Source: Gaiellales bacterium
GTDB lineage: Bacteria; Actinomycetota; Thermoleophilia; RBG-16-64-13
DNA length: 64,000 nucleotides
Assembly (NCBI GenBank): GCA_012719395.1
Contig: JAAYAL010000016.1
Location: 3,166-67,165, forward strand
Direction of reading: 5' to 3'
Shown: positions 2 to 63,063 of the stretch, in pieces
Position numbering within the stretch: the stretch's first letter is position 1
Layout of the letters: each line of letters opens with the position of its first letter
Program-made: the position numbers and the translations under genes
Notes under the pieces: model-generated
What the model saw: the letters and a program-made list of their open reading frames with translations, nothing else
Databases searched by the model: none
What the model was told of the DNA's origin: nothing

Positions 2-469
2 CCCAAGTTCACACGCATTGTGAGCTTCGCCTATGACAATTTCGTGAATGTTCTCGTGGAGCACGAAGGCATCCCGGGGCAGGATGCTCTCATGCTCAGC
101 CAGCGTATCGGGTTGGAGGGTCCCCAGGAAGCGTCTACGGAGGACTACACCGCTTCCACTGTGAGCGAGGTCAGAACCGCGCTGGGCAGGGTGGCTGAGC
201 AGTTTGCCGAAGAGATGCGGCGGTCGTTTGACTTCTACCGCAGCCAGGAATACGCAGCGCCCTTGTCACGCGTGGTGTTGGCCGGTCGAGGGCCGCTCCT
301 TCGCAACCTGGACCACTACCTGAGCGAGTTCCTGAACGTCCCCGTTGAGGTGGGGAACCCGCTGTTGAAGATCGGGGTCAACAGGACCAAGATGACGGAC
401 GACATGCTGGCGGCGCTTGCGCCGCGCATGTCCGTAGCCGTGGGTCTCTCCTTGGACGAGGCCGAGTAA
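2..469 (+). CDS. pilM: Type IV pilus assembly protein PilM, C-terminal part (gene begins before the window)
   Basis: Open frame from window edge; actin-like C-terminus (EMRRSFDFYRSQ, VVLAGRG..LRNLDHYLSEFLNVPVEVGNP, AVAVGLSL); stop overlaps pilN start. Confidence 0.88.
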   Translation, partial: PKFTRIVSFAYDNFVNVLVEHEGIPGQDALMLSQRIGLEGPQEASTEDYTASTVSEVRTALGRVAEQFAEEMRRSFDFYRSQEYAAPLSRVVLAGRGPLLRNLDHYLSEFLNVPVEVGNPLLKIGVNRTKMTDDMLAALAPRMSVAVGLSLDEAE

Positions 470-1125
470 TGCTGCGACGCATCAATCTGATACCTCAGTC
501 GGAGCGTGTGCGCACGCAAAGCGACATGGGCATGCTGGCACTGATCATCGTCAGCGCGGTGGTGCTGGCGGCCATTGCCTTCACGTACGTCTACTTCAAC
601 GGTGTGCTGAAGGACCGTCAGGAGGAATTGGCCTCTCTCCAATCCCAGACGGCCCAGGTTCAGAGCCGACTCAACGCTTTGGGAGAGTATGAGGCGTTGG
701 ATGAGAAGCGACGGGAAGCAGAGGCCGTGGTACAGCACATCTATGCCGGGCGCACTCTGGTGTCGCAGGCGCTGGGCGACCTCAGCCTGGTTATTCCCAA
801 GGAATCGTGGCTGCAGCAGATGCAGTTGTCGTCGCCTGCAGTCCCGGCCTACGGCGCCGGCGCAGGCGGCCAGGAGGATGTCGAGTTGGGCATGTTCTCG
901 GTGTCGGGACAAACCTACACCTTTGAAGATGTGGCAACTGTCCTTGTCCGACTGGAGCAGATCCCCTCGCTTGGCCCGGTGGTGCTCACGACGGCTGCGA
1001 CCAATGATTCTGCTGCATCTCCGACCACCACTTCCATCAAGACGTTCACGTTGACGGCATCAGTTGCCAATACGCAGCCGGCAGATACTCCTTTGCCTAT
1101 ATCGCAGGTCCAGGTGGGTCAATGA
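469..1125 (+). CDS. pilN: Type IV pilus assembly protein PilN
   Basis: RRINLIP N-terminal PilM-binding motif, single TM helix, coiled coil, C-terminal PilN-type domain; between pilM and pilO. Confidence 0.88.
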   Translation: MLRRINLIPQSERVRTQSDMGMLALIIVSAVVLAAIAFTYVYFNGVLKDRQEELASLQSQTAQVQSRLNALGEYEALDEKRREAEAVVQHIYAGRTLVSQALGDLSLVIPKESWLQQMQLSSPAVPAYGAGAGGQEDVELGMFSVSGQTYTFEDVATVLVRLEQIPSLGPVVLTTAATNDSAASPTTTSIKTFTLTASVANTQPADTPLPISQVQVGQ

Positions 1126-1745
1126 GCCGGCGCAACATCTACATAGTCTCCGGCATAGCCTTGGTGGCCATCGTGGTGGCGTACTGGTTCCTGCTGTTCA
1201 GCCCACTGCAGGATCGGATCAGCCAGCACGACCGGCAGATTGAGGATGAGCGCCAGAGGCTGACGGTCCTCCAGACGAAGCTCACACAATTCGCCACGTT
1301 GAAGGACGAAGCGGCGCGCAACAAGGGCCGTCTGCTGGAGCTCGCCAAGCTGGTTCCGGAGTCCGAGGAACTGCCCAGTCTTCTACTTGAGGTGCAGGAG
1401 TTGGCCACTGAGGCGGGGATCACGTTCGTGAGCGTCACGCCGAGTGCCGCCTCCATGTCGGAGGGCTTCCAGGTGATTCCACTGGAGCTGCAGTTTGTTG
1501 GCAGTTTCTTCGATGTCAATGATTTCATTTACCGGGCGGAGCAGCTGGCATCCGGGCCCGGGCGGTTGTTGTCGGTACAAGCATTGACCCTCTCGGTATC
1601 GTCGGACACCTCAGGCCAATCGGCAGCCGGGTTGTCACCAAAACTCAGTGTGTCCATGACGCTCAATGCCTACGAGCGTAATCCCTCATTGGAATCGCCA
1701 CCCCAGGCCCAGGCTCAAGCTACGCCGGCCGCAGCCAGCGAGTAG
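1122..1745 (+). CDS. pilO: Type IV pilus assembly protein PilO
   Basis: N-terminal TM, coiled coil, LVPESEELPSLLLEVQELATEAGI, IPLELQFVGSFFDVNDFI PilO-like core; ATGA overlap with pilN. Confidence 0.88.
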   Translation: MSRRNIYIVSGIALVAIVVAYWFLLFSPLQDRISQHDRQIEDERQRLTVLQTKLTQFATLKDEAARNKGRLLELAKLVPESEELPSLLLEVQELATEAGITFVSVTPSAASMSEGFQVIPLELQFVGSFFDVNDFIYRAEQLASGPGRLLSVQALTLSVSSDTSGQSAAGLSPKLSVSMTLNAYERNPSLESPPQAQAQATPAAASE

Positions 1746-2420: not shown

Positions 2421-3632
2421 ATGGGAACAGGCATTTCTTGCATCACGTCAGGCGAATCGCATGGGCCGGCTGAGGTGTGCATCATTGAGGGCGTGCCTGC
2501 CGGATTGCGGCTGGCGGCGGAAGGTATTGACCTGCAGTTGCACCGTCGACAGACAGGCTACGGCCGGGGTGGGCGCATGGCAATCGAGTCCGACCACGTT
2601 GAGATCCTCTCCGGAGTGAGGGGTGGCAGCACCCTGGGCACCCCCGTGACGTTGCTGGTCAAGAATGCCGACCACCGCAACTGGATTCCAGCCATGCAGG
2701 CTGCTCCGTGGGCCACCGGCGAGGGGGGTAGCGGCCCATCGGTCACGGTCCCTCGTCCCGGGCATGCGGACTACGCCGGGCTCTGCAAACACGATCATCA
2801 CGACATAAGGAACGTACTGGAACGGGCAAGCGCGCGCGAGACCGTCTCCCGCGTGGCCGGAGGAGCCGTAGCCAGGGCTCTGCTCAGAGAACTGGGCGTG
2901 GAGGTGCGTGGCAGAGTCATCGCCGTGGGTGGGGTGGAGGATGCAACCGTGGTGGACCTCAACGATCCACAGTCAATCAACTGGGCTGCAGTGGAGGCAT
3001 CGGCGCTCCGGGTGGCGGATGCCGGGGCGGAACTGGCTATCATCGCCCAGATAGACGCCGCCCGCGAGGCAGGGGAGTCCCTGGGTGGCACGCTGGAGGT
3101 CTGGGCCTGGGGATTGGTGCCTGGACTGGGGGGGTATGCCACGCGCCAGATGCGCTTGGATGGTCGCCTGCTGGGATCCGTGGGCAGTGTCCCCGCCATC
3201 GTGGGGGTCGAGCTTGGGCTTGGGTTCAAGCGTGCGGGGTTGCGGGGGTCCGCGGCGCAGGATGCCTTCTACGTATCGGGAACGGAAAGGCCGGTGGTGC
3301 AGCGTCGCAGCAATCGGGCGGGCGGGGTGGAAGGTGGGATGACCAACGGCTCACCTCTGGTGCTGCGGGCCGCCATGAAGCCCATACCGACCATGACCTC
3401 GCCGCTTCCCTCGGTGGATCTTCAAGACATGACGGCTGCGCCTGCGCACAAGGAACGCAGCGATATCGTGGCGGTTCCGGCCGCTACGGTGGTAGCCGAA
3501 GCGGAGGTCTGCCTTGTGCTGGCTTCAGCGTACGTGGAGAAATTCGGCGGCGATTGCCTGGGAGACCTGCAGGAGGCGTTGAGGCTCTACTGCGCGCGAT
3601 TGGAAGCGAGAGGTCTGTGGCGCCGCTCGTAG
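2421..3632 (+). CDS. aroC: Chorismate synthase
   Basis: TSGESHG, RRQTGYGRGGRM, RPGHAD, ERASARET, SNRAGGVEGGMTNG, MKPIPT motifs. Confidence 0.96.
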   Translation: MGTGISCITSGESHGPAEVCIIEGVPAGLRLAAEGIDLQLHRRQTGYGRGGRMAIESDHVEILSGVRGGSTLGTPVTLLVKNADHRNWIPAMQAAPWATGEGGSGPSVTVPRPGHADYAGLCKHDHHDIRNVLERASARETVSRVAGGAVARALLRELGVEVRGRVIAVGGVEDATVVDLNDPQSINWAAVEASALRVADAGAELAIIAQIDAAREAGESLGGTLEVWAWGLVPGLGGYATRQMRLDGRLLGSVGSVPAIVGVELGLGFKRAGLRGSAAQDAFYVSGTERPVVQRRSNRAGGVEGGMTNGSPLVLRAAMKPIPTMTSPLPSVDLQDMTAAPAHKERSDIVAVPAATVVAEAEVCLVLASAYVEKFGGDCLGDLQEALRLYCARLEARGLWRRS

Positions 3633-38848: not shown

Positions 38849-38923
38849 CGGGACGTGGCGCAGCTTGGCTAGCGCATCCGGCTGGGGGCCGGAAGGCCGC
38901 CGGTTCGAATCCGGCCGTCCCGA
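38849..38923 (+). tRNA. tRNA-Pro (anticodon GGG), CCA not encoded
   Basis: Acceptor CGGGACG/CGTCCCG+A; D-arm GCGC-AGCTTGGCTA-GCGC; anticodon arm TCCGG-CTGGGGG-CCGGA; T-arm GCCGG-TTCGAAT-CCGGC; followed by CTT, not CCA. Confidence 0.96.
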
Positions 38924-39043
38924 CTTTCTTGTTTCCTCACCTCCTCGGTCCACTCAGGCCCCGCCTCGTTGCAGCGGCATGCGCCCGGTTCGTCATGTGG
39001 CCGGCGCGCGCTGCGTCCCACACCCCGGCCACGGGAGGCATCC

Positions 39044-43387: not shown

Positions 43388-45143
43388 TGGACGCGGGGCA
43401 CGCCGTTCACCGCGTCGCTGGGGGCCTGCAGTGGCGGCCCTGCTACTGGTGCTCGCAGGCTTGGTGGCAGCCGATTTCGCGCTCTCGCAAGGAGCCGTGC
43501 ACCATGGTGTTCATATATGGGGGGTGGACGTGTCCGGGGCGTCCCCAACAGAAATAGCCGTGCGCATGGCGGACAGGCCGGCCGCCCTTCTGGGTACGCC
43601 CCTCACGGTGAGCGTTGCGGAGAATGACGGAGAAATCCTCTTGGTGCCGGCAGACATGGGCTTGCGGCTCGACCTGACTGGGACCACGGCGGAGGCCATG
43701 GCACAGGGACGGTCCGGTGGCCCTCTGCGCGCCGCTATCGAGCGCTTGGGACTGTGGCTACGCCCGGTCAACCTCGCGCCCGTGCTTGGCCTGGACTCGG
43801 TTCGGTGGCAGGCGGCCTGCGATGAGCTGGCACTGCGTGTGGAGCGGATGGCGGAAGATGCCCAGCTCATTCTGCAGGATGGGGAGCCCAAGGTGGTGGC
43901 TGCAGTCATCGGGTTGGTCATCGATCGCGCGGAGCTCGAGCGCCGCGTGCGCCACGCTGTACTGTCCGGGTCGGGCTCGGTGGAATGCCCCCACCTCGTT
44001 GTGCAGCCGGAAGTGAGCACGGAGGAGGCCGTCGCGGCGCTGGCTGCCGCCAGAGGGTTCTTCTCCGCCGCGGTCACCGTGCGCTATCAAGCCCTGTCCA
44101 TCGACATCACACGCGAGGAACTGCTGCGGATCGCCGGATTCCTCCCCACGGCAACGACGACCGGCCGACCCGTGACGGTGGATACCGAGGCGGGCCGCGC
44201 CCTGCTGTCACAGAAGCTGGCGGTGTTTGAACGTGAGGCGGTCGATGCCCAGGTGGTGCCCTCGGCCGATGGACATTCTTACACAGTGGTGCCCAGCCAG
44301 GACGGCATCGCCGTGGATTGGGAGAAGCTGATCCGCGCCATCGATGAGCTCGCCCTGGCCCGCGACCGCCCGTACGTGCCGCTTCCCGTCATCGTCACAC
44401 ACCCCAAGCTCACCTCGCTGGATGCCGAGTTGCTCAAGGATCGCCTGCCCGTGGCCAGCTTCACAACCTACTTTTCCCCGGATAACGCGGCGCGCGTCAA
44501 CAACATTCGGCAGGTGGCTCAGATGTTGGACGGCCGAGTCATCCGGCCGGGGGAGACCTTCTCCTTCAACGAAGCCGTGGGTCCCAGGACCAAGGCCGCC
44601 GGCTTCGACGAGGCGCCCGTCATCAGCAACGGTGTCCTCACGCCGGGGGTGGGAGGCGGCATCTGCCAGGTCTCCACCACCCTGTTCAATGCCGCTCTGC
44701 TGGCAGGACTGCCCATCGTGGAACGATCGCCTCACTCCTTCTACATTGAGCGCTACCCGGTGGGCCGCGACGCCACCGTCTCCTATGGCGCCCAGGACCT
44801 GCGCTTCACCAATGACACGGACAACCTCCTCATTCTCAGCCTGGAGGCGGGGCAGGACTACGTGCTGGCCACGTTTTCCGCCACGCACTGGGACCGGCAC
44901 GGCGTGTGTGAAGAAGCGGAGATCAGCAACGTGCGACCGCCCCACAGCACGGCCGACCACCCGCGCATGTACCTGGATCCCGAATTGGGGCCGGGACAGC
45001 GATCGGAGGTGGAGGAGGGCATAAAGGCGCGCACCGTGCGCGTGACTCGCCGGGTCTATTCCGAGGACGGCGCGCTGCTCTGGGAGGACTCGTTCTTGAG
45101 CGAGTATGCGCCAAAGGAGTGGGTGGTGCGAGTGGGGGCGTGA
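43365..45143 (+). CDS. VanW family protein with peptidoglycan-binding domains
   Basis: N-terminal TM, GVHIWGVDVSG, VanW core RVNNI..., PGETFSFNE.VG.R, GGGICQVSTTLFNA, ERSPHS..Y..GRDAT, DLRF.ND; start uncertain. Confidence 0.87.
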   Translation: MRRDPQSSGRGARRSPRRWGPAVAALLLVLAGLVAADFALSQGAVHHGVHIWGVDVSGASPTEIAVRMADRPAALLGTPLTVSVAENDGEILLVPADMGLRLDLTGTTAEAMAQGRSGGPLRAAIERLGLWLRPVNLAPVLGLDSVRWQAACDELALRVERMAEDAQLILQDGEPKVVAAVIGLVIDRAELERRVRHAVLSGSGSVECPHLVVQPEVSTEEAVAALAAARGFFSAAVTVRYQALSIDITREELLRIAGFLPTATTTGRPVTVDTEAGRALLSQKLAVFEREAVDAQVVPSADGHSYTVVPSQDGIAVDWEKLIRAIDELALARDRPYVPLPVIVTHPKLTSLDAELLKDRLPVASFTTYFSPDNAARVNNIRQVAQMLDGRVIRPGETFSFNEAVGPRTKAAGFDEAPVISNGVLTPGVGGGICQVSTTLFNAALLAGLPIVERSPHSFYIERYPVGRDATVSYGAQDLRFTNDTDNLLILSLEAGQDYVLATFSATHWDRHGVCEEAEISNVRPPHSTADHPRMYLDPELGPGQRSEVEEGIKARTVRVTRRVYSEDGALLWEDSFLSEYAPKEWVVRVGA

Positions 45144-45208: not shown

Positions 45209-45793
45209 TCACACCGCGGCGGTGCGGGCGATGACCTGCTTGCAGATGGTCTTCAAGGTCTCGAACACACCCATCCCTGTGAGAGCCGAGGACTCCAACA
45301 CCGGAGCATTGGTGTGGTTGAGAAGGTCGGAGAGGTCTTGGGGGGAGAATATCTCAGGAAGATCCCTCTTGTTCAGTTGCAGCACGGTGGCCAAGCGGTT
45401 GAGCTCGTCCCCCTGTGACCTGATGTTGTCCCACAGATTGAGGTAGCTCTCCACGTTCTCGTCCAGACGGCAGATCTGGCTGTCCACCACGAACACCACG
45501 CCGTCGACCCCCTGCAGCACCAACCGCCGCGAGGCGTTGTAGTGCGACTGCCCGGGAACGGTGTAGAGGTGGAACCTGGTCTTCATGCCTTTGACCGACC
45601 CCAGGGACAGTGGGAGGAAGTCGAAGTAGAGGGTGCGTTCCTCCTCGGTGGCGATGCTCACCAGCTTGCCGCGGGTGTTGGGGTTGACCTTCTTGTGAAT
45701 GTACTGGATATTGGTGGTCTTCCCACACAGTCCACAGCCGTAGTAGACGATCTTGTAGTTGATCTCCCGGGCGGCGAAATTGATCAAAGGCAT
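45209..45793 (-). CDS. mglA: MglA small Ras-like GTPase (Myxococcus/Thermus-type)
   Basis: INF..REIN.KIVYYG.GLCGKTTN, ERTLYFDFLPL, FHLYTVPGQ, GVDGVVFVVDSQ, NKRDL. Confidence 0.95.
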   Translation of the reverse strand: MPLINFAAREINYKIVYYGCGLCGKTTNIQYIHKKVNPNTRGKLVSIATEEERTLYFDFLPLSLGSVKGMKTRFHLYTVPGQSHYNASRRLVLQGVDGVVFVVDSQICRLDENVESYLNLWDNIRSQGDELNRLATVLQLNKRDLPEIFSPQDLSDLLNHTNAPVLESSALTGMGVFETLKTICKQVIARTAAV

Positions 45794-45798
45794 AGCAC

Positions 45799-46251
45799 TT
45801 AGTCCACCCCTCCGAAGAGATCGTCCACTGCTTCTGAGGCTTCCACGGTGTACTGCTTGTCAACTACAGCGAGGTCGATGTCCTCCTCCGCCGCGCGGAA
45901 CAGCGGCCCCAAAGCCTCAATGGCCCGAGCCGTGTAAAGCCTCACCTTCCCCACCTGAGTATCGCGACCGAAAGCCACCACCAGCAACACTCTATCCGTC
46001 ACCTGCGCCACGTGCAGGTTGGAGTTCCGTCCTTCGTGGAAGAGCAGCGTGAACTCCCGCTCATTGAGAACGGCCGCCAGTTGTTGAGTGGCGGCAAAGG
46101 AACTGGCTGCCAGCGAAGCCAGCGACAACATGTCCGATTGGGCGTCCGCCGGCGAACAGGTGATGGGCTGACCGCTGGTGGAGACGATGGAGATGAAGCG
46201 AACCCCCGATGATGCATGGAGATCATTGAGGATCTGATCCACCAACCTCAT
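45799..46251 (-). CDS. mglB: MglB roadblock/LC7 GTPase-activating protein
   Basis: SLASLAA, EF...FHEG, VLLVVAF...T.VG.VRL, acidic C-terminal DDLF helix; immediately upstream of mglA; ATG at 46251. Confidence 0.9.
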   Translation of the reverse strand: MRLVDQILNDLHASSGVRFISIVSTSGQPITCSPADAQSDMLSLASLAASSFAATQQLAAVLNEREFTLLFHEGRNSNLHVAQVTDRVLLVVAFGRDTQVGKVRLYTARAIEALGPLFRAAEEDIDLAVVDKQYTVEASEAVDDLFGGVD

Positions 46252-46326
46252 GCGTCTGCTGCTTATGACGAGGCCCCTGCGGAGCGCCAAAGCGACTACC
46301 TTCCCCCGGTGGTTCCCTTGTCCGAG

Positions 46327-46335
46327 AGTATAACA
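46327..46335 (-). promoter_or_regulatory. Putative extended -10 promoter for mglBA
   Basis: Minus strand TG-T-TATACT. Confidence 0.5.
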
Positions 46336-46421
46336 ACACTGCAGGTCAAGCTGACCCACAGTCGCGCTTCCGGTCCCGGGAATGCCCAAGACAGGGCTTC
46401 GGCAGAGCGCCGGGTGGCCTG

Positions 46422-46430: not shown

Positions 46431-46463
46431 GGATGTGGCTCTGCAGGCTCGAAAGGAGAGGTA

Positions 46464-46850
46464 GTGAACCCCAAGGACTTCAGGTTCCACAAGGAGCATG
46501 ACTGGGTCCGTGTGGAGGGTGATATCGCCGCTTTCGGCGTCACCGATTACGCGCAGAAGACACTGGGTGACATTGTATATGTGGAATTGCCGGAAGTGGG
46601 CACGGAAGTGGCGGCAAATGATTCCTATGCTGAAGTCGAGTCGGTGAAAGCGGTTTCAGACGTCATCAGCCCGCTGAGTGGAATTGTCGTTGAGATCAAC
46701 GAAGAGGCAGTTGATGCCCCGGAGATCATCAACAAGAGCCCTTATGATGAGGGTTGGCTGGTGAGGGTACGCTATTCGAACCCTGCAGAACTAGATGACC
46801 TTATGACGTATGACGAGTATGAGCAGATGGTGCGTGAGCTGGAGACCTGA
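46464..46850 (+). CDS. gcvH: Glycine cleavage system H protein (lipoyl carrier)
   Basis: HKEHDWV, GVTDYAQ..LGDIVYVELP, VESVKAVSD (lipoyl Lys), IN..PY..GWL. Confidence 0.96.
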   Translation: MNPKDFRFHKEHDWVRVEGDIAAFGVTDYAQKTLGDIVYVELPEVGTEVAANDSYAEVESVKAVSDVISPLSGIVVEINEEAVDAPEIINKSPYDEGWLVRVRYSNPAELDDLMTYDEYEQMVRELET

Positions 46851-47140
46851 TGGATGCTGACGACTCATTCCAGGTTCTGATCGGGATTCAGTCTTACACG
46901 GACGACGAGCTGAAGTCTTTGGCTGCGCAGCTGGAACTTGAGGAGAAGGATATCTCCCGCCGACGGAGGATCCTCCACGGTAAGCTGGATATCCTGCGGG
47001 CCGAGATGGTTCGTAGGCTGCGTGACAAGCGCGGCGCGGGGGGGACGTTGGTGGGAGAGGATGACATCGCTCGCCTGTCGGAGATACTGAGCACGCGCTC
47101 GGGAAAGTGGCAGCCACCCAGCCCGCCCGGGGAGGACTGA
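46850..47140 (+). CDS. rsiG: RsiG-like single-motif c-di-GMP-binding anti-sigma factor
   Basis: DELKSL..QLELEEKDISRRRRILHGKLDILRAE: E32-x3-S36-x2-R39-x3-H43-x3-D47 matches the RsiG E-x3-S-x2-R-x3-Q-x3-D signature with Q to H; 96 aa, one copy. Confidence 0.75.
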   Translation: MDADDSFQVLIGIQSYTDDELKSLAAQLELEEKDISRRRRILHGKLDILRAEMVRRLRDKRGAGGTLVGEDDIARLSEILSTRSGKWQPPSPPGED

Positions 47141-47217
47141 CCGGGCCGGGGACGGGTGTCATAGAATCGAATGATCCTATCGGTTGGCGGGGGTATCCAA
47201 CGGAAGAGGGGGGTTCG

Positions 47218-47514
47218 GTGGCAGGGATAGTCTCACGAGGCGTTGGCGCAATCAGAGCCGTGTTCATGCAGGCAACAGCGGGGATTCGGGAAGAGCGTGT
47301 GATCCGCTACATGCTCAACGAGATGCAGAGAGGCAAAGCCTACGACGAGATCGTGGGCGAGGCGTACGTTGTCAACCACACCACGGCGGAATCACGGGCC
47401 CGTTTGGTGGAGAACCCTCGCATCCTGAGTGGTATTGAAGACCAGTTGGCCGGTGGGCGCTACACGTACAAAGTCGACTACGCCACCGTTCGCGCCACCG
47501 ACAGGACCGAATAG
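47218..47514 (+). CDS. Small hypothetical protein
   Basis: GTG at 47218 after GAGGGGG; REERVIRYMLNEMQRGKAYDEIVGEAYV helical core; no family recognised. Confidence 0.6.
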   Translation: MAGIVSRGVGAIRAVFMQATAGIREERVIRYMLNEMQRGKAYDEIVGEAYVVNHTTAESRARLVENPRILSGIEDQLAGGRYTYKVDYATVRATDRTE

Positions 47515-49220: not shown

Positions 49221-50093
49221 TCAGAAGGCCTTGCGGCTGAGCAGCGCCCGCAACCGGCCAAGAGCTTTGGTCTGCTCGCGGGAGATGGTCCGTTGACTCA
49301 CGCCCATTTCCTGCGCCACTTCGCGCTGCGACAACTCCTTGAAGAAAAGCAGGTAAACCAGGCGTTTTTGCATCTCGGAGAGCTTGGCCAGGGCTTGGTA
49401 CAGGGAGATGCGCTCTTCAATGGGCAGCGTGAAGCTCTCGTAGCGCAGCGCCCGCACACGGCTGGCATCGGGTTGGCCGACTCCATCGCCGTCTTGTTCT
49501 GATGTCTCGCCTAGGAACTGGAGATCCAGTTGCGCGTAGACACGAAGAACCTCGAGCAGGCCCTCCTCGGTGACGTTGACCTCAGCGGCCAGTTCCTGCA
49601 CAGAAGGCAATCGTTGCTGGCGCTCGAAGAAACGCGCCTGGGCGCTCTGGATGTCGTGATACAGGGTCCGGGCCCAGCGCGGTTGCCGAAGCAGGAGGTT
49701 GTCGCGCAGATGATGGCGCACCTCCCCATCAATGATCGCCACTGTATAGGTGGCAAAACTAAGACCGCGATCCCGGTCGAAGCGCTGCGCTGCTTTGAGC
49801 AGCCCTAGACGGGCCACCTGCAGTAGGTCCTCTTCTGGTTCCTTGGCATGCGTGAAGCGCCGCAGCACGTGGTAGAGCAGCCCGGTGTTGTTGTCCAGAA
49901 GGGCATCCAGGCAACGGGTGCATGCGGTGTCCTGATAGCAGCTGACCAAGTCGAGGTTGGTGGTGTCCGCGAGATTGTCGTTACGACAGCGCAGGGCTAC
50001 CGGCCTCCCCGTAGGCCGGGGAGCGACCGGCTTGTCGGCGAGATCAAGCAGCGCGGGACTGCGCTTCCCCAGTGCGGTAGCGTACAGGGTCAT
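49221..50093 (-). CDS. Alternative sigma factor, SigB/SigF/SigG-like (divergent)
   Basis: EDLLQVARLGLLKAAQRFDRDRG.SFATY...IDGEVRHHLRD region 2; region 4 LSQREVAQEMGVSQRTISR; start codon uncertain. Confidence 0.88.
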   Translation of the reverse strand: MTLYATALGKRSPALLDLADKPVAPRPTGRPVALRCRNDNLADTTNLDLVSCYQDTACTRCLDALLDNNTGLLYHVLRRFTHAKEPEEDLLQVARLGLLKAAQRFDRDRGLSFATYTVAIIDGEVRHHLRDNLLLRQPRWARTLYHDIQSAQARFFERQQRLPSVQELAAEVNVTEEGLLEVLRVYAQLDLQFLGETSEQDGDGVGQPDASRVRALRYESFTLPIEERISLYQALAKLSEMQKRLVYLLFFKELSQREVAQEMGVSQRTISREQTKALGRLRALLSRKAF

Positions 50094-50100
50094 GTGAGCT

Positions 50101-51321
50101 TCACTTCACCAGATCCATCATGCTGAACATGGGTAGGTACATGGAGATGACTATCACTCCGACCATCCCCCCCACGAAAATCATCATCACCGGCTCCAGA
50201 ATGGAGGTCAGCTGCTTGATGACCGCGTCCACTTCATCCTCGTAGAAATCGGCGATCTTGTGCAACATGTTGTCCAAGGCACCTGTCTCCTCACCGATGG
50301 CAATCATGTGTGTCACCATGGGCGGGAACACCTTTGCCTCCTCAAGCGGGCGCGCGATGGACTCGCCGCCACGGATCTTGGCTTTTGTCTGCTCCATGGC
50401 CCGCTCGATCACCACGTTGCCGGCCGTTTTGCCTGTGATGTCCAGGGATTGGAGGATGGGGACTCCCGAGCTGGCCAATGTGGCCAACGTGCGACTGAAG
50501 CGCGCCACGGCCAGCTTCTGCACGATCTCGCCTATGCGCATGGGTATGTGGAGCTTGAAGCGATCCCACGCGGCCGCGCCCTGTGGCGTGCGCTTGAGGT
50601 AGCGGAGGCCCAGCACGAGACCCACGACGCAGGGAATGATGACGAACCACCAGCCCTTCAAGAAATCGCTGATGCCGACCATGGCCCGCGTCAAGCCCGG
50701 CAACTCGCCACCCAGTTGGTCAAACATGTCCGCGAAGATGGGGATGATGAAAAGGATCATGCCGATGAGGACGAGGATAGAGAACACGCCTATCAGAGTG
50801 GGGTAGGCCATGGCCGATTTCACTGTGCGCTGCAGGCTGTCCTGCTTCTCGAGCTGCGTAGCCAGACGGTCGAGGGTGACATCCAGCACGCCACCCGTCT
50901 CCCCCGCCCTCACCATGGAGACGTAGAGCCGGTCGAACGCAGCCGGGTGCTTCTCCATAGCATCTGAGATGGGCAGGCCGGCTTCGACGTCGGCTTTGAC
51001 CAGGGAGATGATGTGCTTGAAACGCGCGTTCTGCGTCTGAGACTCCAGGACATACAACGCGCGCAAGATGGCGAGGCCGGCGCCGATCATGGTTGCAAAC
51101 TGCCGGCTGAACACGACCTTGTCCCGAAGCTTGATGCGACTCATGCTCTGCATCTTCTCGTCCAGGCCGGCGAAGAGACTGGTTCGTTTCTCGTCCAACG
51201 CCAGAACGGTCAGCCCCCTGCGCCTCAGCTCCGCCGCAGCCGCCATCTTGGAAGCGCCGTCGATTATGCCCTTCACCGGACTGCCCTGCGGAGGCCGGGC
51301 TGTGTACTCATAGGTTGCCAT
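50101..51321 (-). CDS. pilC: Type IV pilus platform protein PilC
   Basis: FSRQFATMIGAGL, VRAGETGGVLD, SAMAYP, IIPIFADMF, FSRTLATL.SSGVPIL, MIAIGEETG.L, MYLPMF. Confidence 0.96.
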   Translation of the reverse strand: MATYEYTARPPQGSPVKGIIDGASKMAAAAELRRRGLTVLALDEKRTSLFAGLDEKMQSMSRIKLRDKVVFSRQFATMIGAGLAILRALYVLESQTQNARFKHIISLVKADVEAGLPISDAMEKHPAAFDRLYVSMVRAGETGGVLDVTLDRLATQLEKQDSLQRTVKSAMAYPTLIGVFSILVLIGMILFIIPIFADMFDQLGGELPGLTRAMVGISDFLKGWWFVIIPCVVGLVLGLRYLKRTPQGAAAWDRFKLHIPMRIGEIVQKLAVARFSRTLATLASSGVPILQSLDITGKTAGNVVIERAMEQTKAKIRGGESIARPLEEAKVFPPMVTHMIAIGEETGALDNMLHKIADFYEDEVDAVIKQLTSILEPVMMIFVGGMVGVIVISMYLPMFSMMDLVK

Positions 51322-51355: not shown

Positions 51356-52420
51356 CTAGGCGGCACCGGACATGATCAGCCTGCCGAGATCTTCAGGATT
51401 GGAGGAACGGGTCTCCGCCAGTTCCCGGCTGATGAGCTTGCGCCGCACCAAGTCGGCAAGGGCGAAGTCCATGGTCTGCATGCCATATTTGCTGCCCGTC
51501 TGCATCACCGTGTATATCTGGTGCGTCTTGCCCTCGCGGACGAGATTGCGCACGGCCGGCGTGGGAACCAGCACCTCACAGGCCGCCACCCGTCCGTGGC
51601 CGTCGCGCCGGGGCAGCAACTGCTGTGTGACGATGCCCTGGATGGTCGAGGCGATCTGCACACGGATCTGCTCTTGCTGGTGAGGCGGGAAGACGTCGAT
51701 CATGCGGTCGATGGACTGCGGGCAGTCCTGTGTGTGAAGGGTAGCGAACACCAGATGGCCGGTCTCGGCAGCGGTGAGAGCCGTCTGGATGGTCTCCAGA
51801 TCTCGCATCTCACCTACCAGTATGACATCCGGGTCTTGGCGCAGGACCGACTTCAGGGCGCGCCCGAACCCCTTGGTATCCGTGCCCACTTCGCGCTGGT
51901 TGACCAAGCATTTCTTGTGCGCGTGGAGGAACTCGATGGGGTCCTCGATGGTCATGATGTGCTCGCTGCGATTGGAGTTGATCTCATCGATGATCGCGGC
52001 GAGCGTGGTGGACTTGCCGGACCCGGTGGGACCGGTGACCAGCACAAAACCGCGCGGCTTCTGCGAGAAGCTGTGGACGACCTTTGGCAGCCCCAGACTG
52101 TCGATAGTCAGGATCTTGAGGGGCACCAAGCGGAACGCGGCTCCCAGGCTGTTGCGCTGGAAGTACACGTTGACGCGGAAGCGGGCACGGCCCGGCATGG
52201 AATAGGAGAAATCGATCTCCCAGTCGGTCTCCAGCTTCTGCCTCTGATCCTGGGTCAGGATGCTGTAGATGAGATCCCGCGTCTCCGGAGGTGTCAGCGG
52301 AGGGTAGGGCAGGTGAGTGAGGTGGCCGTGCACCCTCACCGTGGGGGGTATGCCCACGGACAGGTGCAGATCTGATGCGTCGAGATCCACCACCTGGACA
52401 AGAATGTCAATGAGATCCAT
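51356..52420 (-). CDS. pilT: Type IV pilus retraction ATPase PilT
   Basis: ASDLHL, RFRVN, GPTGSGKST, EDPIE, LRQDPDVILVGEMRD, AETGHLV..TLHT, AVRNLVRE (AIRNLIRE motif); ATG 52420 after GGAGGTGG. Confidence 0.96.
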   Translation of the reverse strand: MDLIDILVQVVDLDASDLHLSVGIPPTVRVHGHLTHLPYPPLTPPETRDLIYSILTQDQRQKLETDWEIDFSYSMPGRARFRVNVYFQRNSLGAAFRLVPLKILTIDSLGLPKVVHSFSQKPRGFVLVTGPTGSGKSTTLAAIIDEINSNRSEHIMTIEDPIEFLHAHKKCLVNQREVGTDTKGFGRALKSVLRQDPDVILVGEMRDLETIQTALTAAETGHLVFATLHTQDCPQSIDRMIDVFPPHQQEQIRVQIASTIQGIVTQQLLPRRDGHGRVAACEVLVPTPAVRNLVREGKTHQIYTVMQTGSKYGMQTMDFALADLVRRKLISRELAETRSSNPEDLGRLIMSGAA

Positions 52421-52450
52421 CTGCCACCTCCGTAGCACCGAGAGATCGGT

Positions 52451-54175
52451 CTAGACGATGACCCGCGCGATCTCCTCGACGCTTGTCAGTCCCTCAAGCA
52501 CCTTGTCAATTCCGTCTTCCCGAAGCCCGAGCATGCCTTCGGCCACGGCGACCCTGCCGATTTCATCGGCACTCTTGCGCTCAACCGTGAGTCTCTCGAT
52601 AGCCTCAGAGACCGGCATCACCTCGTAGATCCCTAGGCGTCCTCGATACCCGGTGTGGTTGCAGCGCCGGCACCCCACAGCGCGGTAGAGAGTGACTTCT
52701 TCCCAGCCGTCGACAGCCTCCTGGGGGAAGTCACTCCGTTGCAGCATTTCCCTGGTGGGCCTGTAGGGCTCCTTGCAGTGATCGCATAGGCGCCGGGCCA
52801 AGCGCTGGGCCAGCACGCAGTCCACGGCGGATGCGGTCAAGAAGGGCTCTATGCCCATCTCCGTGAGCCTGCTGAGCGCGCCGGGCGCGTCATTGGTGTG
52901 GAGCGTGCTGAGCACCAAGTGCCCTGTCAGAGCCGATTCGACGGCGATCTGCGCCGTTTCCCTGTCCCGGATCTCCCCGATCATGATGATGTCCGGATCG
53001 CAGCGTAGGATGGAGCGAAGGCCGGCAGCAAAGGTCAGCCCCGCCCTGGGATTCACGTGCACCTGGTTGATTCGGTTCAGGCGGTACTCAACCGGGTCCT
53101 CCACGGTGATGATGTTCTTTTCCGGTGAGTTGAGGATGTTGAGCGTGGCATAGAGCGTGGTGGATTTGCCGGATCCGGTTGGACCGGTCACCAGGATGGC
53201 CCCGTACGGCTTGGTGAATGACTTGCGGTAGCGGGCCAGCGCCTTCTCAGAGAAGCCGAGGTCCTCCAAACGAAGCATGACGTTGGAGCGATCCAGAAGG
53301 CGGATGACGATCTTCTCGCCGTAGACCGTTGGCAGCGAGGCCACGCGCATATCGATGGGCTTCCCTCCCACCGTGAGCCCCATGCGCCCGTCCTGCGGCA
53401 CGCGGCGCTCGGCGATATCCAGGTCCGCCATGATCTTCACGCGGGACAGCACCCCGGACTGCATGCGGTGAGGGATGGACATGGCCTCGTGGAGGACACC
53501 GTCGTGGCGGAAGCGGATCAGGAGCTCCTTGGCCTGCGGCTCGAAATGGATGTCCGAGGCTCCATCCTCCACCGCCTGCGCGATAACCCCGTTGACCAGC
53601 TTGACGATGGGGGCCTCATCAACCTGTTCCAGAATGTCGTGTATCTCATCAGGGGTCACACGGCTGTCGGCAGGCACGTCCCCATCGATGCTGGTGCCAA
53701 CCTTGTCTTCCAGTTTGCTCAGGTTGGCAATGCTCTCGAAGATGTCCTCTTCGGGGGCGATGGCGGGCTCGATGTCATAACCAGTGAGAATACGAAGATC
53801 ATCGATGGCCAGGATGTTGGCCGGATCCACCATGGCCACCAGAATGGTGTGATCATCGACGAATGACACGGGAAGCGCCGCGTAGCGGCGGGCATCTCTC
53901 TCCGTGATCAACCCGCCGGCGGAGGCTTCCAGCCGGGCATCCTGCAGATCGACGAAGCGAACGCCCAACTGGTGTCCGCGGGCCTTGGCCAACTGAGAAG
54001 GTGTGACCCACTCCTTGGCCACCACGATGTCCCCCATGCGCCGGTGGGAAACCCTCTGCTCCTCAAGTGCCTCGCTCAACTGCTCCGGAGTGATGAGACC
54101 CATCTCAATCAGGATCTCACCCATGCGCAGCTTGCTTGACCTTCGTTGAGGGATGTGTTCGGTGGGCAGCTGCAT
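52451..54175 (-). CDS. pilB: Type IV pilus extension ATPase PilB with N-terminal MshEN domain
   Basis: Tandem RMGEIL../RMGDIV.. repeats; ASDIHFEP, DIAERRVPQDGR, GPTGSGKST, LRCDPDIIMIGEIRD, C.HC...C..C zinc motif, YRGRLGIYE; ATG 54175. Confidence 0.96.
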   Translation of the reverse strand: MQLPTEHIPQRRSSKLRMGEILIEMGLITPEQLSEALEEQRVSHRRMGDIVVAKEWVTPSQLAKARGHQLGVRFVDLQDARLEASAGGLITERDARRYAALPVSFVDDHTILVAMVDPANILAIDDLRILTGYDIEPAIAPEEDIFESIANLSKLEDKVGTSIDGDVPADSRVTPDEIHDILEQVDEAPIVKLVNGVIAQAVEDGASDIHFEPQAKELLIRFRHDGVLHEAMSIPHRMQSGVLSRVKIMADLDIAERRVPQDGRMGLTVGGKPIDMRVASLPTVYGEKIVIRLLDRSNVMLRLEDLGFSEKALARYRKSFTKPYGAILVTGPTGSGKSTTLYATLNILNSPEKNIITVEDPVEYRLNRINQVHVNPRAGLTFAAGLRSILRCDPDIIMIGEIRDRETAQIAVESALTGHLVLSTLHTNDAPGALSRLTEMGIEPFLTASAVDCVLAQRLARRLCDHCKEPYRPTREMLQRSDFPQEAVDGWEEVTLYRAVGCRRCNHTGYRGRLGIYEVMPVSEAIERLTVERKSADEIGRVAVAEGMLGLREDGIDKVLEGLTSVEEIARVIV

Positions 54176-54176
54176 G

Positions 54177-55025
54177 CTATTCCGCGGACGGAGCCGCGGC
54201 GCGCATGGCTTCGCCCGGCGCTTTGGCCCCGGTCCAAAGCTCAAATGACAAAACTGCTTGCTGTACCAGCATCTCCCAACCGTCCATGACCACAGCGCCA
54301 CTGTCGCGGGCAGCAGTCACGAGGGTATGGCCCCCGTAACGAAGGTCCATGACAAATTGGCCTTCGTGGAAGATATCGTCAGCGAGCCCCAAATCCTTGA
54401 CGTTTGGATCACATATTCCGGCCGACGTGGCATTGATGATGAGACCAGCGGTCGAGGCCGCCTCGCGCAGGCCGTCCGCCGTGACCACCCGGCAGTTGCG
54501 CAGGCCCCAGTTGCGGACGGCCTGGGCCAGTTCCTCTGCTCGCTGCGGAGTACGGTTCCACAGCAAAAGGCCGGCAACGCCCCAGTCGGCAAGTGCCGCA
54601 GCTACCGCCCGGGCGGCGCCCCCGGCACCCAGCAGCAGCACGCCGGTTTCGCTCGGGCTGCCATGCCATTGACTCCGCAAGACGCCCAGAAAACCGGCGC
54701 TGTCGGTGTTGTGGCCCACCAAGTGCCCATCGCGGTTCACCACCGTATTGACCGAGCCTATCCGGGCAGCCTGCGGTTCCACTGCGTCCAGCAGGGGGAT
54801 GATGGCCTGCTTGTGTGGAAGCGTGACGTTGGCCCCTAGGGCGTTCAGGGCACGCAGAGCGCCTACGGCCTCCGGCAGGTTGGACGGAGTCACATCGAAG
54901 GCCAGGTAGACGGCAGGCACACCGCAGACCCGGAGTGCAGCGTTCTGCATCGCAGGCGAGAGGGAGTGCGCCACGGGGTGTCCCAACAGCGCGATGAGCT
55001 TGGTGGCGGCGGTGATGCATGCCAT
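54177..55025 (-). CDS. aroE: Shikimate dehydrogenase
   Basis: LLGHPVAHSLSP.MQN, GANVTLPHK, SVNT, GHNTD..GF, GAGGAARA, INATS, G.EMLVQQA. Confidence 0.95.
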   Translation of the reverse strand: MACITAATKLIALLGHPVAHSLSPAMQNAALRVCGVPAVYLAFDVTPSNLPEAVGALRALNALGANVTLPHKQAIIPLLDAVEPQAARIGSVNTVVNRDGHLVGHNTDSAGFLGVLRSQWHGSPSETGVLLLGAGGAARAVAAALADWGVAGLLLWNRTPQRAEELAQAVRNWGLRNCRVVTADGLREAASTAGLIINATSAGICDPNVKDLGLADDIFHEGQFVMDLRYGGHTLVTAARDSGAVVMDGWEMLVQQAVLSFELWTGAKAPGEAMRAAAPSAE

Positions 55026-59228: not shown

Positions 59229-60053
59229 CTACAGCCGCGTGTCGTGTTCGCCTTCTCCCACTATCGTCTGCCTGAGAACGTCGACGGCCTTGCGTATCAG
59301 CCGCGAAACGTGCATCTGCGAGATGCCCACCCGAGCCGCTATCTGCGTCTGCGTCATGCCTTCGAAGAAACGCAGGTGCAGTATCAACCGCTCTCTCTCA
59401 TCCAGATGCTCCATCGCCGGCGCCAGGAAGCGCCTCTGCTCCACCAGTTCATAGGCACCCTCTTCGCCACCCAGGCAATCCGCAATCTCGAAAGCGTCCT
59501 CCTCCTCCGAGGTACCGCTCCCGTAGATCGAGAGGGAATTATAGGCCCTTCCGCTCTCCAGCGCCTCAAGGACTTCCTCTTCGCTCACGCCACACGCTTT
59601 GGCCATGTCCGCGATGGAGGGCGAACGATTGAGATCGACCGTCAACTGCTCCACTACTCGGTTCAGTCTGACGTTGAGGTCCTGCAGGGCCCGGGGGACT
59701 TTGACCGCCCAACCCTTGTCACGGAAGTAGCGCTTGATCTCGCCCATGATGGTTGGAGTGGCATACGTGGACAGCTCCACACCCCTATCGGGATCGAAGC
59801 GATCGATGGCTTTGATCAAACCGATGGACCCCACCTGTATGAGATCCTCCACCGGCTGGCCGCGAGAGGCAAAACGGCGCGCCAAACCGCGCACCAGTGG
59901 CAGATAGCGGGTGATCAGCTCTTCCCGGGCGCCCTGGTCGTGCTCTTGGCGTATGCGACGGAGAAGCACCTTCTCAGGCAGGTCCCGTGGGGGAGGCTCC
60001 AACGGGTCCACCATAGAACGCCCTGCGGCAGCAGCGTGCTTCGGTTCACCCAT
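59229..60053 (-). CDS. SigB/SigF-family stress sigma factor
   Basis: DLIQVGSIGLIKAIDRFDPDRGVELSTYATPTIMGEIKRYFRDKGWAVKVPR; MTQTQIAARVGISQMHVSRL; start 60053 (60056 or 60014 possible). Confidence 0.93.
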   Translation of the reverse strand: MGEPKHAAAAGRSMVDPLEPPPRDLPEKVLLRRIRQEHDQGAREELITRYLPLVRGLARRFASRGQPVEDLIQVGSIGLIKAIDRFDPDRGVELSTYATPTIMGEIKRYFRDKGWAVKVPRALQDLNVRLNRVVEQLTVDLNRSPSIADMAKACGVSEEEVLEALESGRAYNSLSIYGSGTSEEEDAFEIADCLGGEEGAYELVEQRRFLAPAMEHLDERERLILHLRFFEGMTQTQIAARVGISQMHVSRLIRKAVDVLRQTIVGEGEHDTRL

Positions 60054-60447
60054 CACAGCGGCACATCTTGGTGAGCCGGAGGGAGAAGCCCGCCGGCGTT
60101 TCGCGCTCCAGGCCACAGTCGTCTACCAGCCGCCGCAACACGGTGCCCCGATGCAGCAACGGCATGGAAGCCGTTGCCGGCCGAGAGCGACCTAGGATCT
60201 CGGCGCGCAGCCCAGCATCACTCAGCAGACCCAGATACACGTTGATCCGACCATCACCCATCTCAACTTCCATGGTGATCTGGTCTTCCTTGGCCTCCCT
60301 GCCCCTGAGCACGTGCTCCACCGCCAGCTGCAGGTCATCCATGGCCTCGAAGGTCATATCAGCCCTGGCTGCCACCCCGCCCAGCACCAAGCGCAACAGG
60401 GGAAGGTAGGCAGACGAGTCCGGGAGCGTCAGGCACACGCGATCCAA
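60046..60447 (-). CDS. RsbW-like anti-sigma factor with degenerate kinase motifs
   Basis: TTG start after GGAGG; LPDSSAYLPLLRLVLGGVAARADMTFEAMDDLQLAVE resembles the RsbW N-terminus; LVD..and LTK at the C-terminus; overlaps the sigma gene start. Confidence 0.75.
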   Translation of the reverse strand: MDRVCLTLPDSSAYLPLLRLVLGGVAARADMTFEAMDDLQLAVEHVLRGREAKEDQITMEVEMGDGRINVYLGLLSDAGLRAEILGRSRPATASMPLLHRGTVLRRLVDDCGLERETPAGFSLRLTKMCRCDG

Positions 60448-62885: not shown

Positions 62886-62907
62886 GACCTCACTCCTCAT
62901 ACGGAAA

Positions 62908-63059
62908 ATGCTCCACCTTGCCGTGTCTGGGTGATCTTGAACCTGCCTAAGCAGGTGGGTGGCTGCTCCTGGAGGGCACTGCTACCGCCCAGAGAAACAA
63001 GCCTCCCGATCATCGCGTGTTGGCTCAAGACTGAGCAGATCACGCACAAGGTCGAGCAC
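62908..63059 (-). ncRNA. ssrS: 6S RNA
   Basis: Terminal helices TGCTC/GAGCA, ACCTTG/CAAGGT, TGATCT/AGATCA; GGGAGGC(63007-63001)/GCCACCC(62963-62957); bubble hairpin ACCTGC-TTAG-GCAGGT then TCAA; CGGCA; directly downstream of aspS as in Firmicutes. Confidence 0.85.
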
Positions 63060-63063
63060 AACA

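Follow-up and report, generated by a model that had tools for sequence, protein, structure and literature searches.

Within a 64,000-nucleotide (nt) stretch of a Gaiellales bacterium genome (assembly GCA_012719395.1, contig JAAYAL010000016.1, positions 3,166 to 67,165), referred to as the window, two adjacent genes on the minus strand encode a predicted pair of the small Ras-like GTPase MglA and the Roadblock protein MglB, as it is known from Myxococcus xanthus and Thermus thermophilus. The gene order is mglB followed by mglA, with mglB lying directly upstream, and the locus (mglBA) contains the following elements:

45209..45793, minus strand: mglA, 194 amino acids (aa), predicted Group 1 MglA, a small Ras-like GTPase (from PDB, Pfam and a residue check)
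45794..45798, minus strand: spacer of 5 nt between mglB and mglA, predicted operon junction
45799..46290, minus strand: mglB, 163-aa Roadblock/LC7 protein with a TTG start, predicted GTPase-activating protein (GAP) of MglA
46299..46307, minus strand: Shine-Dalgarno-like element GGGGGAAGG, 8 nt before the mglB TTG
46327..46335, minus strand: extended -10-like element TGtTATACT, predicted mglBA promoter

For comparison we scanned one genome per GTDB species, which gave 155 relatives, and used the best 80 of them for the locus analyses. These 80 are all metagenome-assembled genomes (MAGs) labelled Thermoleophilia, Gaiellales, Actinomycetes or Actinomycetota, with MglA identities of 78–85% to the window. 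Their loci (L001–L080) together with a contig from ENA (L081) and L082 make up the 82 loci to which some of the counts refer. Neighbourhoods were compared by tblastn with 19 window proteins against the related loci, PDB comparisons were made with phmmer against all PDB chains, and protein families were scored against the Pfam and NCBIfam cut-offs. The Actinomycetota-like host that had been proposed in a first-pass annotation, made from the letters of the window, agrees with the labels of these closest loci and with the neighbouring genes, which include an Rv1828-type MerR and RsiG, a family limited to Actinobacteria (PMC8325347).

The window MglA matches M. xanthus MglA (6hjh_A) over residues 1–189 with an E-value of 9.2e-72 and 58% identity (110/189) and T. 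thermophilus MglA (3t12_A) with 5.5e-64, and the next PDB family after the MglA chains (Arf and others) follows only at about 1e-05. Pfam called Arf and Ras only, no MglA-specific model was reported in the NCBIfam scan, and an exact-protein lookup of the window MglA gave no record. The P-loop G19-CGLCGK-T26-T27 (GCGLCGKTT) fits the G1 pattern GxxxxGK[ST] and is invariant in 81 clade sequences, as is the intrinsic arginine finger R53-T54 in EEERTLYFDFLP (EERTLYF). G3 reads TVPGQ (T78-V79-P80-G81-Q82, within YTVPGQ) and G4 is NKRD (residues 141–144), a canonical [NT]KxD. Altogether 110 of the 194 residues are invariant across the 81 sequences, every catalytic motif included. Group 1 MglA has been defined by an Arg directly before the G2 Thr and by TVPGQ in G3, whereas Groups 2–5 have a Thr for that Arg and GTPGQ (PMC4316618). 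Because P-loop, R53-T54, TVPGQ and NKRD are all present, we assign the protein to Group 1, and by its sequence it carries all signatures of that group. The motifs named in the first-pass annotation (GLCGKTT, ERTL, PGQ and NKRD) were each found in the minus-strand translation, and its view of a Group 1 MglA coupled to MglB instead of a conservon GTPase is backed by R53-T54, TVPGQ, NKRD and the PDB matches, this being a pairwise comparison and not a tree.

Conservons are the obvious competitor for this identity, as they occur in the same phylum and likewise contain a Roadblock and small-GTPase pair (PMC4316618, PMC13343842), so that mglBA could be a Group 2 signalling module of the CvnD/CvnB type. 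We consider this scarcely credible: Group 2 proteins show the G2 Thr, GTPGQ and NxFD in G4 where the window protein has R53-T54, TVPGQ and NKRD, the pair is flanked by VanW and gcvH and neither by a CvnA-like histidine kinase nor by CvnC, and its MglA shares well over half of its residues with that of M. xanthus. A conservon identity is rejected by both the motif and the context tests.

The open reading frame (ORF) just upstream of mglA extends in its longest form from 45799 to 46389 on the minus strand. Its product belongs to the Pfam family Robl_LC7 (PF03259; 44.2 bits against a cut-off of 23, E-value 1.6e-11) and matches M. xanthus MglB (6izw_B) with 2.5e-15, residues 13–160 being aligned to 11–158, as well as T. 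thermophilus MglB (3t1r_A) with 2e-13. The motifs SLASL, FHEG and DDLF noted in the first reading are all present in the translation. In the alignment, the acidic C-terminal helix of MglB reads VDDLF where the solved MglB structures have IDNLF or LDDLL, and DDLF is kept in the clade. The interface can be compared at two positions, A64 and G68 in M. xanthus and A68 and A72 in T. thermophilus, which we take to be the numbering of the mutational studies; the window protein has Ala at the first of them. Judged by these residues, the products of mglBA match the solved Group 1 pairs in all catalytic and interface features except at the second position, where a Gln is found, and the two genes almost certainly encode a bona fide MglA/MglB GTPase–GAP pair.

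The 5' end of mglB had to be revised. It had been placed at the ATG at 46251, which is an internal Met 39 nt too far downstream, the true start being the TTG at 46290. Across 80 translated sequences (the window and 79 related loci), the 13 residues before this Met are conserved, as ALRRGLVISSRR in the window and ARRKGLVINDRQ in the majority of the relatives. At the position of the Met itself, a Leu is found in most relatives. The upstream start codon is found in 79 of the 80 sequences (GTG in 64, TTG in 11, ATG in 4) and a Shine-Dalgarno-like element precedes it in 78. Because upstream residues, start codon and Shine-Dalgarno element are all conserved, we define mglB as 45799–46290. The resulting length of 163 aa is also that of the MglB gene called in L082 and of the T. 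thermophilus MglB chain 1j3w_A.

Besides the element upstream of mglB, the 3' end of mglB contains a GGAGGGG, at a distance of 13 nt from the mglA ATG. Among the same 80 sequences the hexamer TATACT occurs in 76 of the mglB upstream regions, against 0.33 expected from mononucleotide shuffles; it sits 30–66 nt before the start codon and is directly preceded by TGn (TGnTATACT) in 29 of the 80. The extended -10 ascribed to the pair in the first-pass annotation is therefore retained, as TGtTATACT at 46335–46327. A standard sigma-70 scan upstream of mglB gave no -35/-10 pair, and TTGACC at 46349–46344 was discarded as a -35 because it is only 11 nt from the -10, leaving no canonical -35; it is the conserved TATACT box by itself from which we predict the promoter. 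A terminator after the mglA stop was also discarded, as the stability of the 8-bp hairpin found there does not exceed that of shuffled sequence (z -0.73), and Rfam and tRNA scans gave nothing near the mglBA locus. Taken together, a two-gene operon read from a conserved, predicted -10 promoter is the best explanation for the arrangement of mglB and mglA.

RNA data came from four bioreactor metatranscriptome runs, as assembled contigs with low depth and no strand information. Contigs 100% identical to the window cover 45371–45775, within mglA, and 45737–46164/46186, from the end of mglB into mglA, and single contigs cross the mglB–mglA junction in the runs X4 and X10. The coverage is deeper for gcvH-RsiG-FHA-MerR than for mglBA, patchy for pilC, pilT and pilB, and almost absent for the convergent VanW gene (43401–45004). 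As this unevenness points to RNA rather than to contaminating DNA, the contigs support transcription of mglBA in situ, although they do not prove it. On the opposite strand, the contigs of gcvH-RsiG begin at 46454–46458 in the four runs, with 46491 for one of these, and adapter sequence is attached to this end in two contigs, which suggests a gcvH transcript start only ~6–10 nt before the GTG at 46464 and a near-leaderless mRNA.

The window sequence is present in metagenomes from bioreactors, wastewater, sludge and digesters. In the runs X1 and X2, DNA contigs with a depth of ~14 match only short conserved pieces of mglA and mglB (45749–45793 and 46034–46056) and then diverge, so that a second, more abundant mglBA-bearing relative evidently lives in the same bioreactor samples.

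In all 80 related loci mglB-mglA occupies the same chromosomal place, between VanW and RsiG-FHA-MerR, and the adjacency of the two genes is the same in 79. Every locus shows one order: MerR, FHA and RsiG, joined by gcvH in some loci, share one strand, mglB and mglA lie on the opposite strand, and the convergent VanW gene and a ManC-type gene follow. Two subclades can be distinguished, one with a 194-aa MglA (16 loci), to which the window belongs and which retains gcvH and in part a DUF881-DUF1290-DUF881 trio, and one with a 192-aa MglA (about 64 of the 80 loci). Among the proteins of this neighbourhood MglA is conserved best, with a median identity of 80% across the loci compared to 58% for MglB and 37–53% for VanW, ManC, FHA and MerR. 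The GC content at third codon positions (GC3) is 0.86 for mglA and 0.74–0.84 for its neighbours. From the fixed position, the conservation of MglA and the native GC3 we conclude that mglBA is ancestral to a large Thermoleophilia clade and under strong purifying selection. Within the window's subclade, an ORF between the RsiG-like and FHA genes (47107–47514, plus strand) is conserved with 33–56% identity; it has no Pfam or NCBIfam match, is found in this subclade only, and as annotated shares its first 34 nt with RsiG.

The insertion of mglBA, divergent from gcvH, inside a DUF881-DUF1290-DUF881 ... gcvH-FHA-MerR block was confirmed in the window. In Mycobacterium the corresponding region Rv1823–Rv1828 presumably has the order DUF881, small protein, DUF881, gcvH, garA, MerR, an assumption whose support is the Pfam name Rv1828_C only. 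Compared to this order the clade shows two additions, VanW with mglBA between DUF881 and gcvH, and RsiG with a small gene between gcvH and FHA, and in that sense speaking of an insertion is right. A literature search on the Rv1828/gcvH/garA/DUF881 block found no paper.

Such an interruption of a block that we take to be contiguous in other Actinomycetota might suggest that mglBA is a recent horizontal passenger, or a decaying remnant without a role in its host. A survey from 2014 would fit to this, as it recorded Group 1 MglA in thirteen lineages including Chloroflexi and only Groups 2 and 5 in Actinobacteria (PMC4316618). We nevertheless regard it as very improbable, given the same location in 80 of 80 species-level genomes, the native GC3, the intact ORFs with invariant catalytic motifs and the transcription in situ. 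The horizontal acquisition considered in the first-pass annotation does not hold as a recent event, but an ancient acquisition by the ancestor of the clade is possible.

What then is the output of this pair? The window contains two groups of type IV pilus genes, pilB-pilT-pilC only 4.3 kb from mglBA and pilMNO at its left edge:

20..1745, plus strand: pilM (partial), pilN and pilO, alignment subcomplex (Pfam PilM_2, PilN and PilO)
50101–51321, minus strand: pilC (Pfam T2SSF, 217 bits)
51356–52438, minus strand: pilT (NCBIfam pilT_fam, 496 bits, cut-off 319)
52451–54301, minus strand: pilB (type_IV_pilB, 643 bits, just under the cut-off of 676)

The longest pilB ORF overlaps aroE, and as related PilB proteins have 573 aa, translation probably begins some 40 codons further downstream than 54301. 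The N-terminus of PilB carries an MshEN-type motif for cyclic di-GMP (c-di-GMP; NF053729, 67.7 bits against a cut-off of 38). No secretin gene follows pilMNO; the next genes are an ORF without Pfam match (1666–2337) and aroC, encoding chorismate synthase (2421–3632). Such a layout is to be expected in a cell that has no outer membrane. The block aroE-pilB-pilT-pilC-sigma is syntenic with mglBA in those loci of the window's subclade that have enough flank, and pilBTC lies within 10 kb of mglBA in this subclade and in L081. PilB, PilT and PilC are the motor of a type IVa pilus and likely the output machinery of mglBA. A MglA grouping with non-motility clades and not co-occurring with type IVa pilus genes had been named beforehand as an outcome that would speak against pilus control. 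This is not what the window shows, where the motor genes are close by and pilMNO is present as well. In L081 (2457–6314), the pilB, pilT and pilC genes next to mglBA are broken up into numerous short ORFs, due either to frameshift errors of long reads or to decay of the pilus genes.

Directly downstream of pilC follows a gene for a group 3 sigma factor of 290 aa (49221–50093, minus strand), which is co-conserved with pilBTC in the closest relatives and could be the pilus-cluster sigma factor of the clade. An assignment as WhiG was dropped, since the protein is SigF/SigB-like instead (1l0o_C with 8e-24; SigBFG 163 bits against 88 for FliA_WhiG). A second sigma factor of the SigB/SigF type is encoded next to alaS (59229–60116, minus strand; 8x6g_H, E-value 1e-54). 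Other features of the window are a 6S RNA (62906–63060, minus strand; Rfam RF00013, 70.5 bits) and a tRNA-Pro(GGG) (38849–38924, plus strand).

A further link to the pilus motor comes from the relatives. By tblastn, 64 of the 82 loci have a gene for a PATAN protein (PF14332, PatA_N/DUF4388) beside and divergent from mglB, and several of the PATAN-negative loci are short contigs. The stand-alone protein has ~110 aa in the window's subclade and is longer in the other one: in L082 and L009 it has 110 aa and is encoded between gcvH and mglB (L082, 9023–9355, minus strand), and a longer protein is found at the same divergent position in L019 (8676–9491, minus strand). PATAN genes are known neighbours of Group 1 and Group 5 mglA (PMC4316618), and PATAN domains bind PilB and PilC in Synechocystis (bioRxiv 10.1101/2021.06.11.447907). 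A misassembly as the cause for the PATAN-less window was dismissed, as independent DNA contigs from two runs span the 173-bp mglB–gcvH spacer without differences.

The second neighbour of regulatory interest is encoded on the other side of gcvH:

46850..47140, plus strand: RsiG-like single-motif protein, 96 aa, of the c-di-GMP-dependent anti-sigma family

It is recognized by the Pfam model RsiG (52.3 bits), matches Rubrobacter RsiG (7lq2_B) with 2.2e-08, and its gene is located beside mglBA in 76 loci. The published RsiG consensus is E-x3-S-x2-R-x3-Q-x3-D, the Gln of which contacts c-di-GMP, whereas the proteins of the clade follow E-x3-S-x2-R-x3-H-x3-D, with His in 60 loci and the consensus Gln in 15. 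Single-motif RsiG of Rubrobacteria and Thermoleophilia together with c-di-GMP holds WhiG, a switch that drives pilus genes in Rubrobacter (PMC8325347). A search for the WhiG/sigma-28 promoter TAAA-N14-17-GCCGATAA with up to 2 mismatches found no site on either strand of the whole window, and mglBA and the pil genes of the window thus are not assignable to an RsiG–WhiG regulon. Due to the His in the motif, the SigF/SigB-like sigma factor and the lack of such a promoter, we treat RsiG as a neighbour of possible relevance only, and it is uncertain whether it is part of an mglBA circuit.

These c-di-GMP-related features would also suit a different output, namely another polarized or surface behaviour such as gliding-type motility, adhesion or biofilm entry, or DNA uptake, with c-di-GMP acting through the RsiG-like protein and pili being one output at most. 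In favour of this, the RsiG-like gene flanks mglBA in nearly all loci, PilB has the MshEN motif, RsiG–(c-di-GMP)–WhiG governs pilus expression in Rubrobacter (PMC8325347), and M. xanthus MglA governs two motility systems. No genes for a gliding machinery (Agl/Glt) were seen in the window, however, and the missing WhiG-type promoter, the SigF-like sigma factor by pilC and the His at the position of the c-di-GMP-binding Gln all argue against it, so that we find this output improbable.

On the basis of homology and gene context, we favour control of type IV pilus polarity as the function of mglBA and give it a probability of roughly 55–60%. Several observations weigh against it. About 64 of the 80 loci, those of the 192-aa subclade, have no pilB, pilT or pilC within roughly 7 kb of upstream flank, and throughout the clade mglBA is linked to VanW and RsiG-FHA-MerR rather than to pil genes. 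A tblastn with two PATAN proteins of the clade (E 1e-3) detected no such gene anywhere in the 64 kb of the window, and among the Pfam-scanned window proteins there is no SgmX-like (TPR), RomR-like (receiver) or second Roadblock (MglC) protein, RomX not having been searched for specifically. FrzS- or Frz-like genes were not seen in the window either. For MglB, the sole NCBIfam match is the Thermus-type MglB equivalog NF052242 with 77.9 bits, below its cut-off of 200 and so a similarity at the subfamily level, and the Gln at the position equivalent to Mx G68/Tt A72 is conserved in the clade. Finally, the close relatives that we found are all uncultured MAGs.

The clade-wide linkage also speaks for a pair that is real but acts on envelope growth or division polarity, through DUF881-DUF1290-DUF881, VanW with its peptidoglycan-binding domain, FHA and an Rv1828/FtsR-type MerR. 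The only genes linked to the pair in 80 of 80 loci are VanW at one flank and RsiG-FHA-MerR at the opposite one, the MerR belongs to the Rv1828 type, and most loci are without nearby pil genes. DUF881 and DUF1290 are moreover division-cluster proteins in Firmicutes. A position in an ancient conserved block can simply be inherited, however; VanW, which is convergent to mglA, shows hardly any transcription in the runs that cover mglBA, no characterized Group 1 MglA controls growth or division, and the frequent PATAN partner points to the pilus motor. A role in growth or division is for these reasons unlikely, though it is the most serious of the alternatives.

If mglBA does control pilus polarity, the mechanism might be as follows. 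MglA would bind GTP and cycle between its GTP and GDP forms, and an MglB dimer would dock on MglA-GTP and speed up hydrolysis by bringing R53 and Q82 into place. A second, allosteric contact as in M. xanthus could come from the acidic helix at the C-terminus of MglB (…VDDLF); in the solved systems the MglB dimer acts as GAP and the C-terminal helix is allosteric (PMC3199381, PMC6876712). On the model of M. xanthus and T. thermophilus, MglA-GTP and MglB would then mark opposite poles and decide where the PilB/PilT/PilC motor is active, so that a cell moving or attaching by its pili would have a front and a rear. In M. xanthus, MglA stimulates unipolar formation of type IVa pili (PMC7519303, PMC7668184), and mutants of mglA and mglB in T. 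thermophilus mislocalize their pili, the pole and not the formation being affected (PMC12024867). In most relatives the PATAN protein would probably serve as adaptor to the pilus motor; its gene is missing from the locus in the window. GTPase and GAP activity, polar localization and the pilus output are what we infer for mglBA, and the directional twitching suggested in the first-pass annotation may likewise be deduced from homology and context. A more elaborate model, in which the clade polarizes a secretin-less type IVa pilus using MglA/MglB, a PATAN adaptor and c-di-GMP inputs via the RsiG-like protein and the MshEN domain of PilB, is tentative and clearly less probable than pilus polarity control as such.

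A full-text literature search found no paper joining MglA with Thermoleophilia, and for MglA, Actinomycetota and type IV pili only a paper on conservons was found. Some clade proteins are labelled 'gliding-motility protein MglA [Actinobacteria bacterium]' in public annotation, and the MglA sequences of the clade are thus catalogued but unstudied. Group 1 MglA/MglB is the best-understood polarity GTPase of bacteria, studied in few diderm-type bacteria (Myxococcus, Bdellovibrio and Thermus). Chloroflexi, among the lineages with Group 1 MglA, are generally regarded as having no outer membrane. The mglBA locus extends the known polarity switch to Actinomycetota, which is a taxonomic extension and not a new mechanism, in a clade that is widespread in wastewater and soil. 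If the model with a PATAN adaptor and c-di-GMP inputs is true, it would be the first front–rear polarity GTPase system in Actinomycetota that is distinct from conservons, and an MglA/MglB module working without the RomR, SgmX and Frz proteins of Myxococcus. The clade offers a minimal, differently wired version of MglA/MglB for comparison, a testable lead on pilus positioning in Gram-positive-type cells, and a candidate meeting point of GTPase and c-di-GMP control.

Among the known systems compared, the conservons (CvnA-D; MfpB/MfpD) belong to Group 2 and differ from mglBA in the histidine kinase CvnA, in CvnC and in the motifs G2 Thr, GTPGQ and NxFD. The Rubrobacter switch (RsiG)2-(c-di-GMP)2-WhiG (PDB 7lq2–7lq4) likewise has a short single-motif RsiG in a deep-branching class with pil genes nearby, but the clade shows His for Gln in the motif, a SigF-like sigma factor by pilC and no WhiG promoter, and the link of its RsiG-like protein to mglBA is positional. 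PATAN-domain partners of MglA/MglB and of the pilus motor are represented by cyanobacterial PixE/PixG and M. xanthus SgnC, and most loci of the clade have an mglB-linked PATAN gene, an association reported by Makarova 2006 and Wuichet 2014. A receiver domain is lacking in the Thermoleophilia proteins, as is the whole gene in the window. The pair itself corresponds to the two solved systems. M. xanthus MglA/MglB (6hjh, 6h5b, 6izw, 5ymx) has the same mglB-mglA operon order, keeps R53, T54, T78, Q82 and NKRD, and also has a Roadblock MglB with the interface Ala (Mx A64) and a …D(D/N)LF helix, with PilB and PilT of the type IVa pilus in the same genome. The window MglB is only 29% identical to it, with Gln for Mx G68, the pilus genes are of a monoderm type with pilMNO and no secretin, and the surroundings of the locus are actinobacterial, namely a gcvH-FHA-MerR block with an RsiG-like gene as neighbour. 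T. thermophilus MglA/MglB (3t12, 3t1q, 1j3w) differs in envelope and gene neighbourhood and its MglB is 30% identical, whereas the interface helix is nearly the same, AATQQLA in the window and AATQALA in Thermus, and the Thermus pair sets the pole of the pilus (PMC12024867), which is the role that we propose for the pair in the window.

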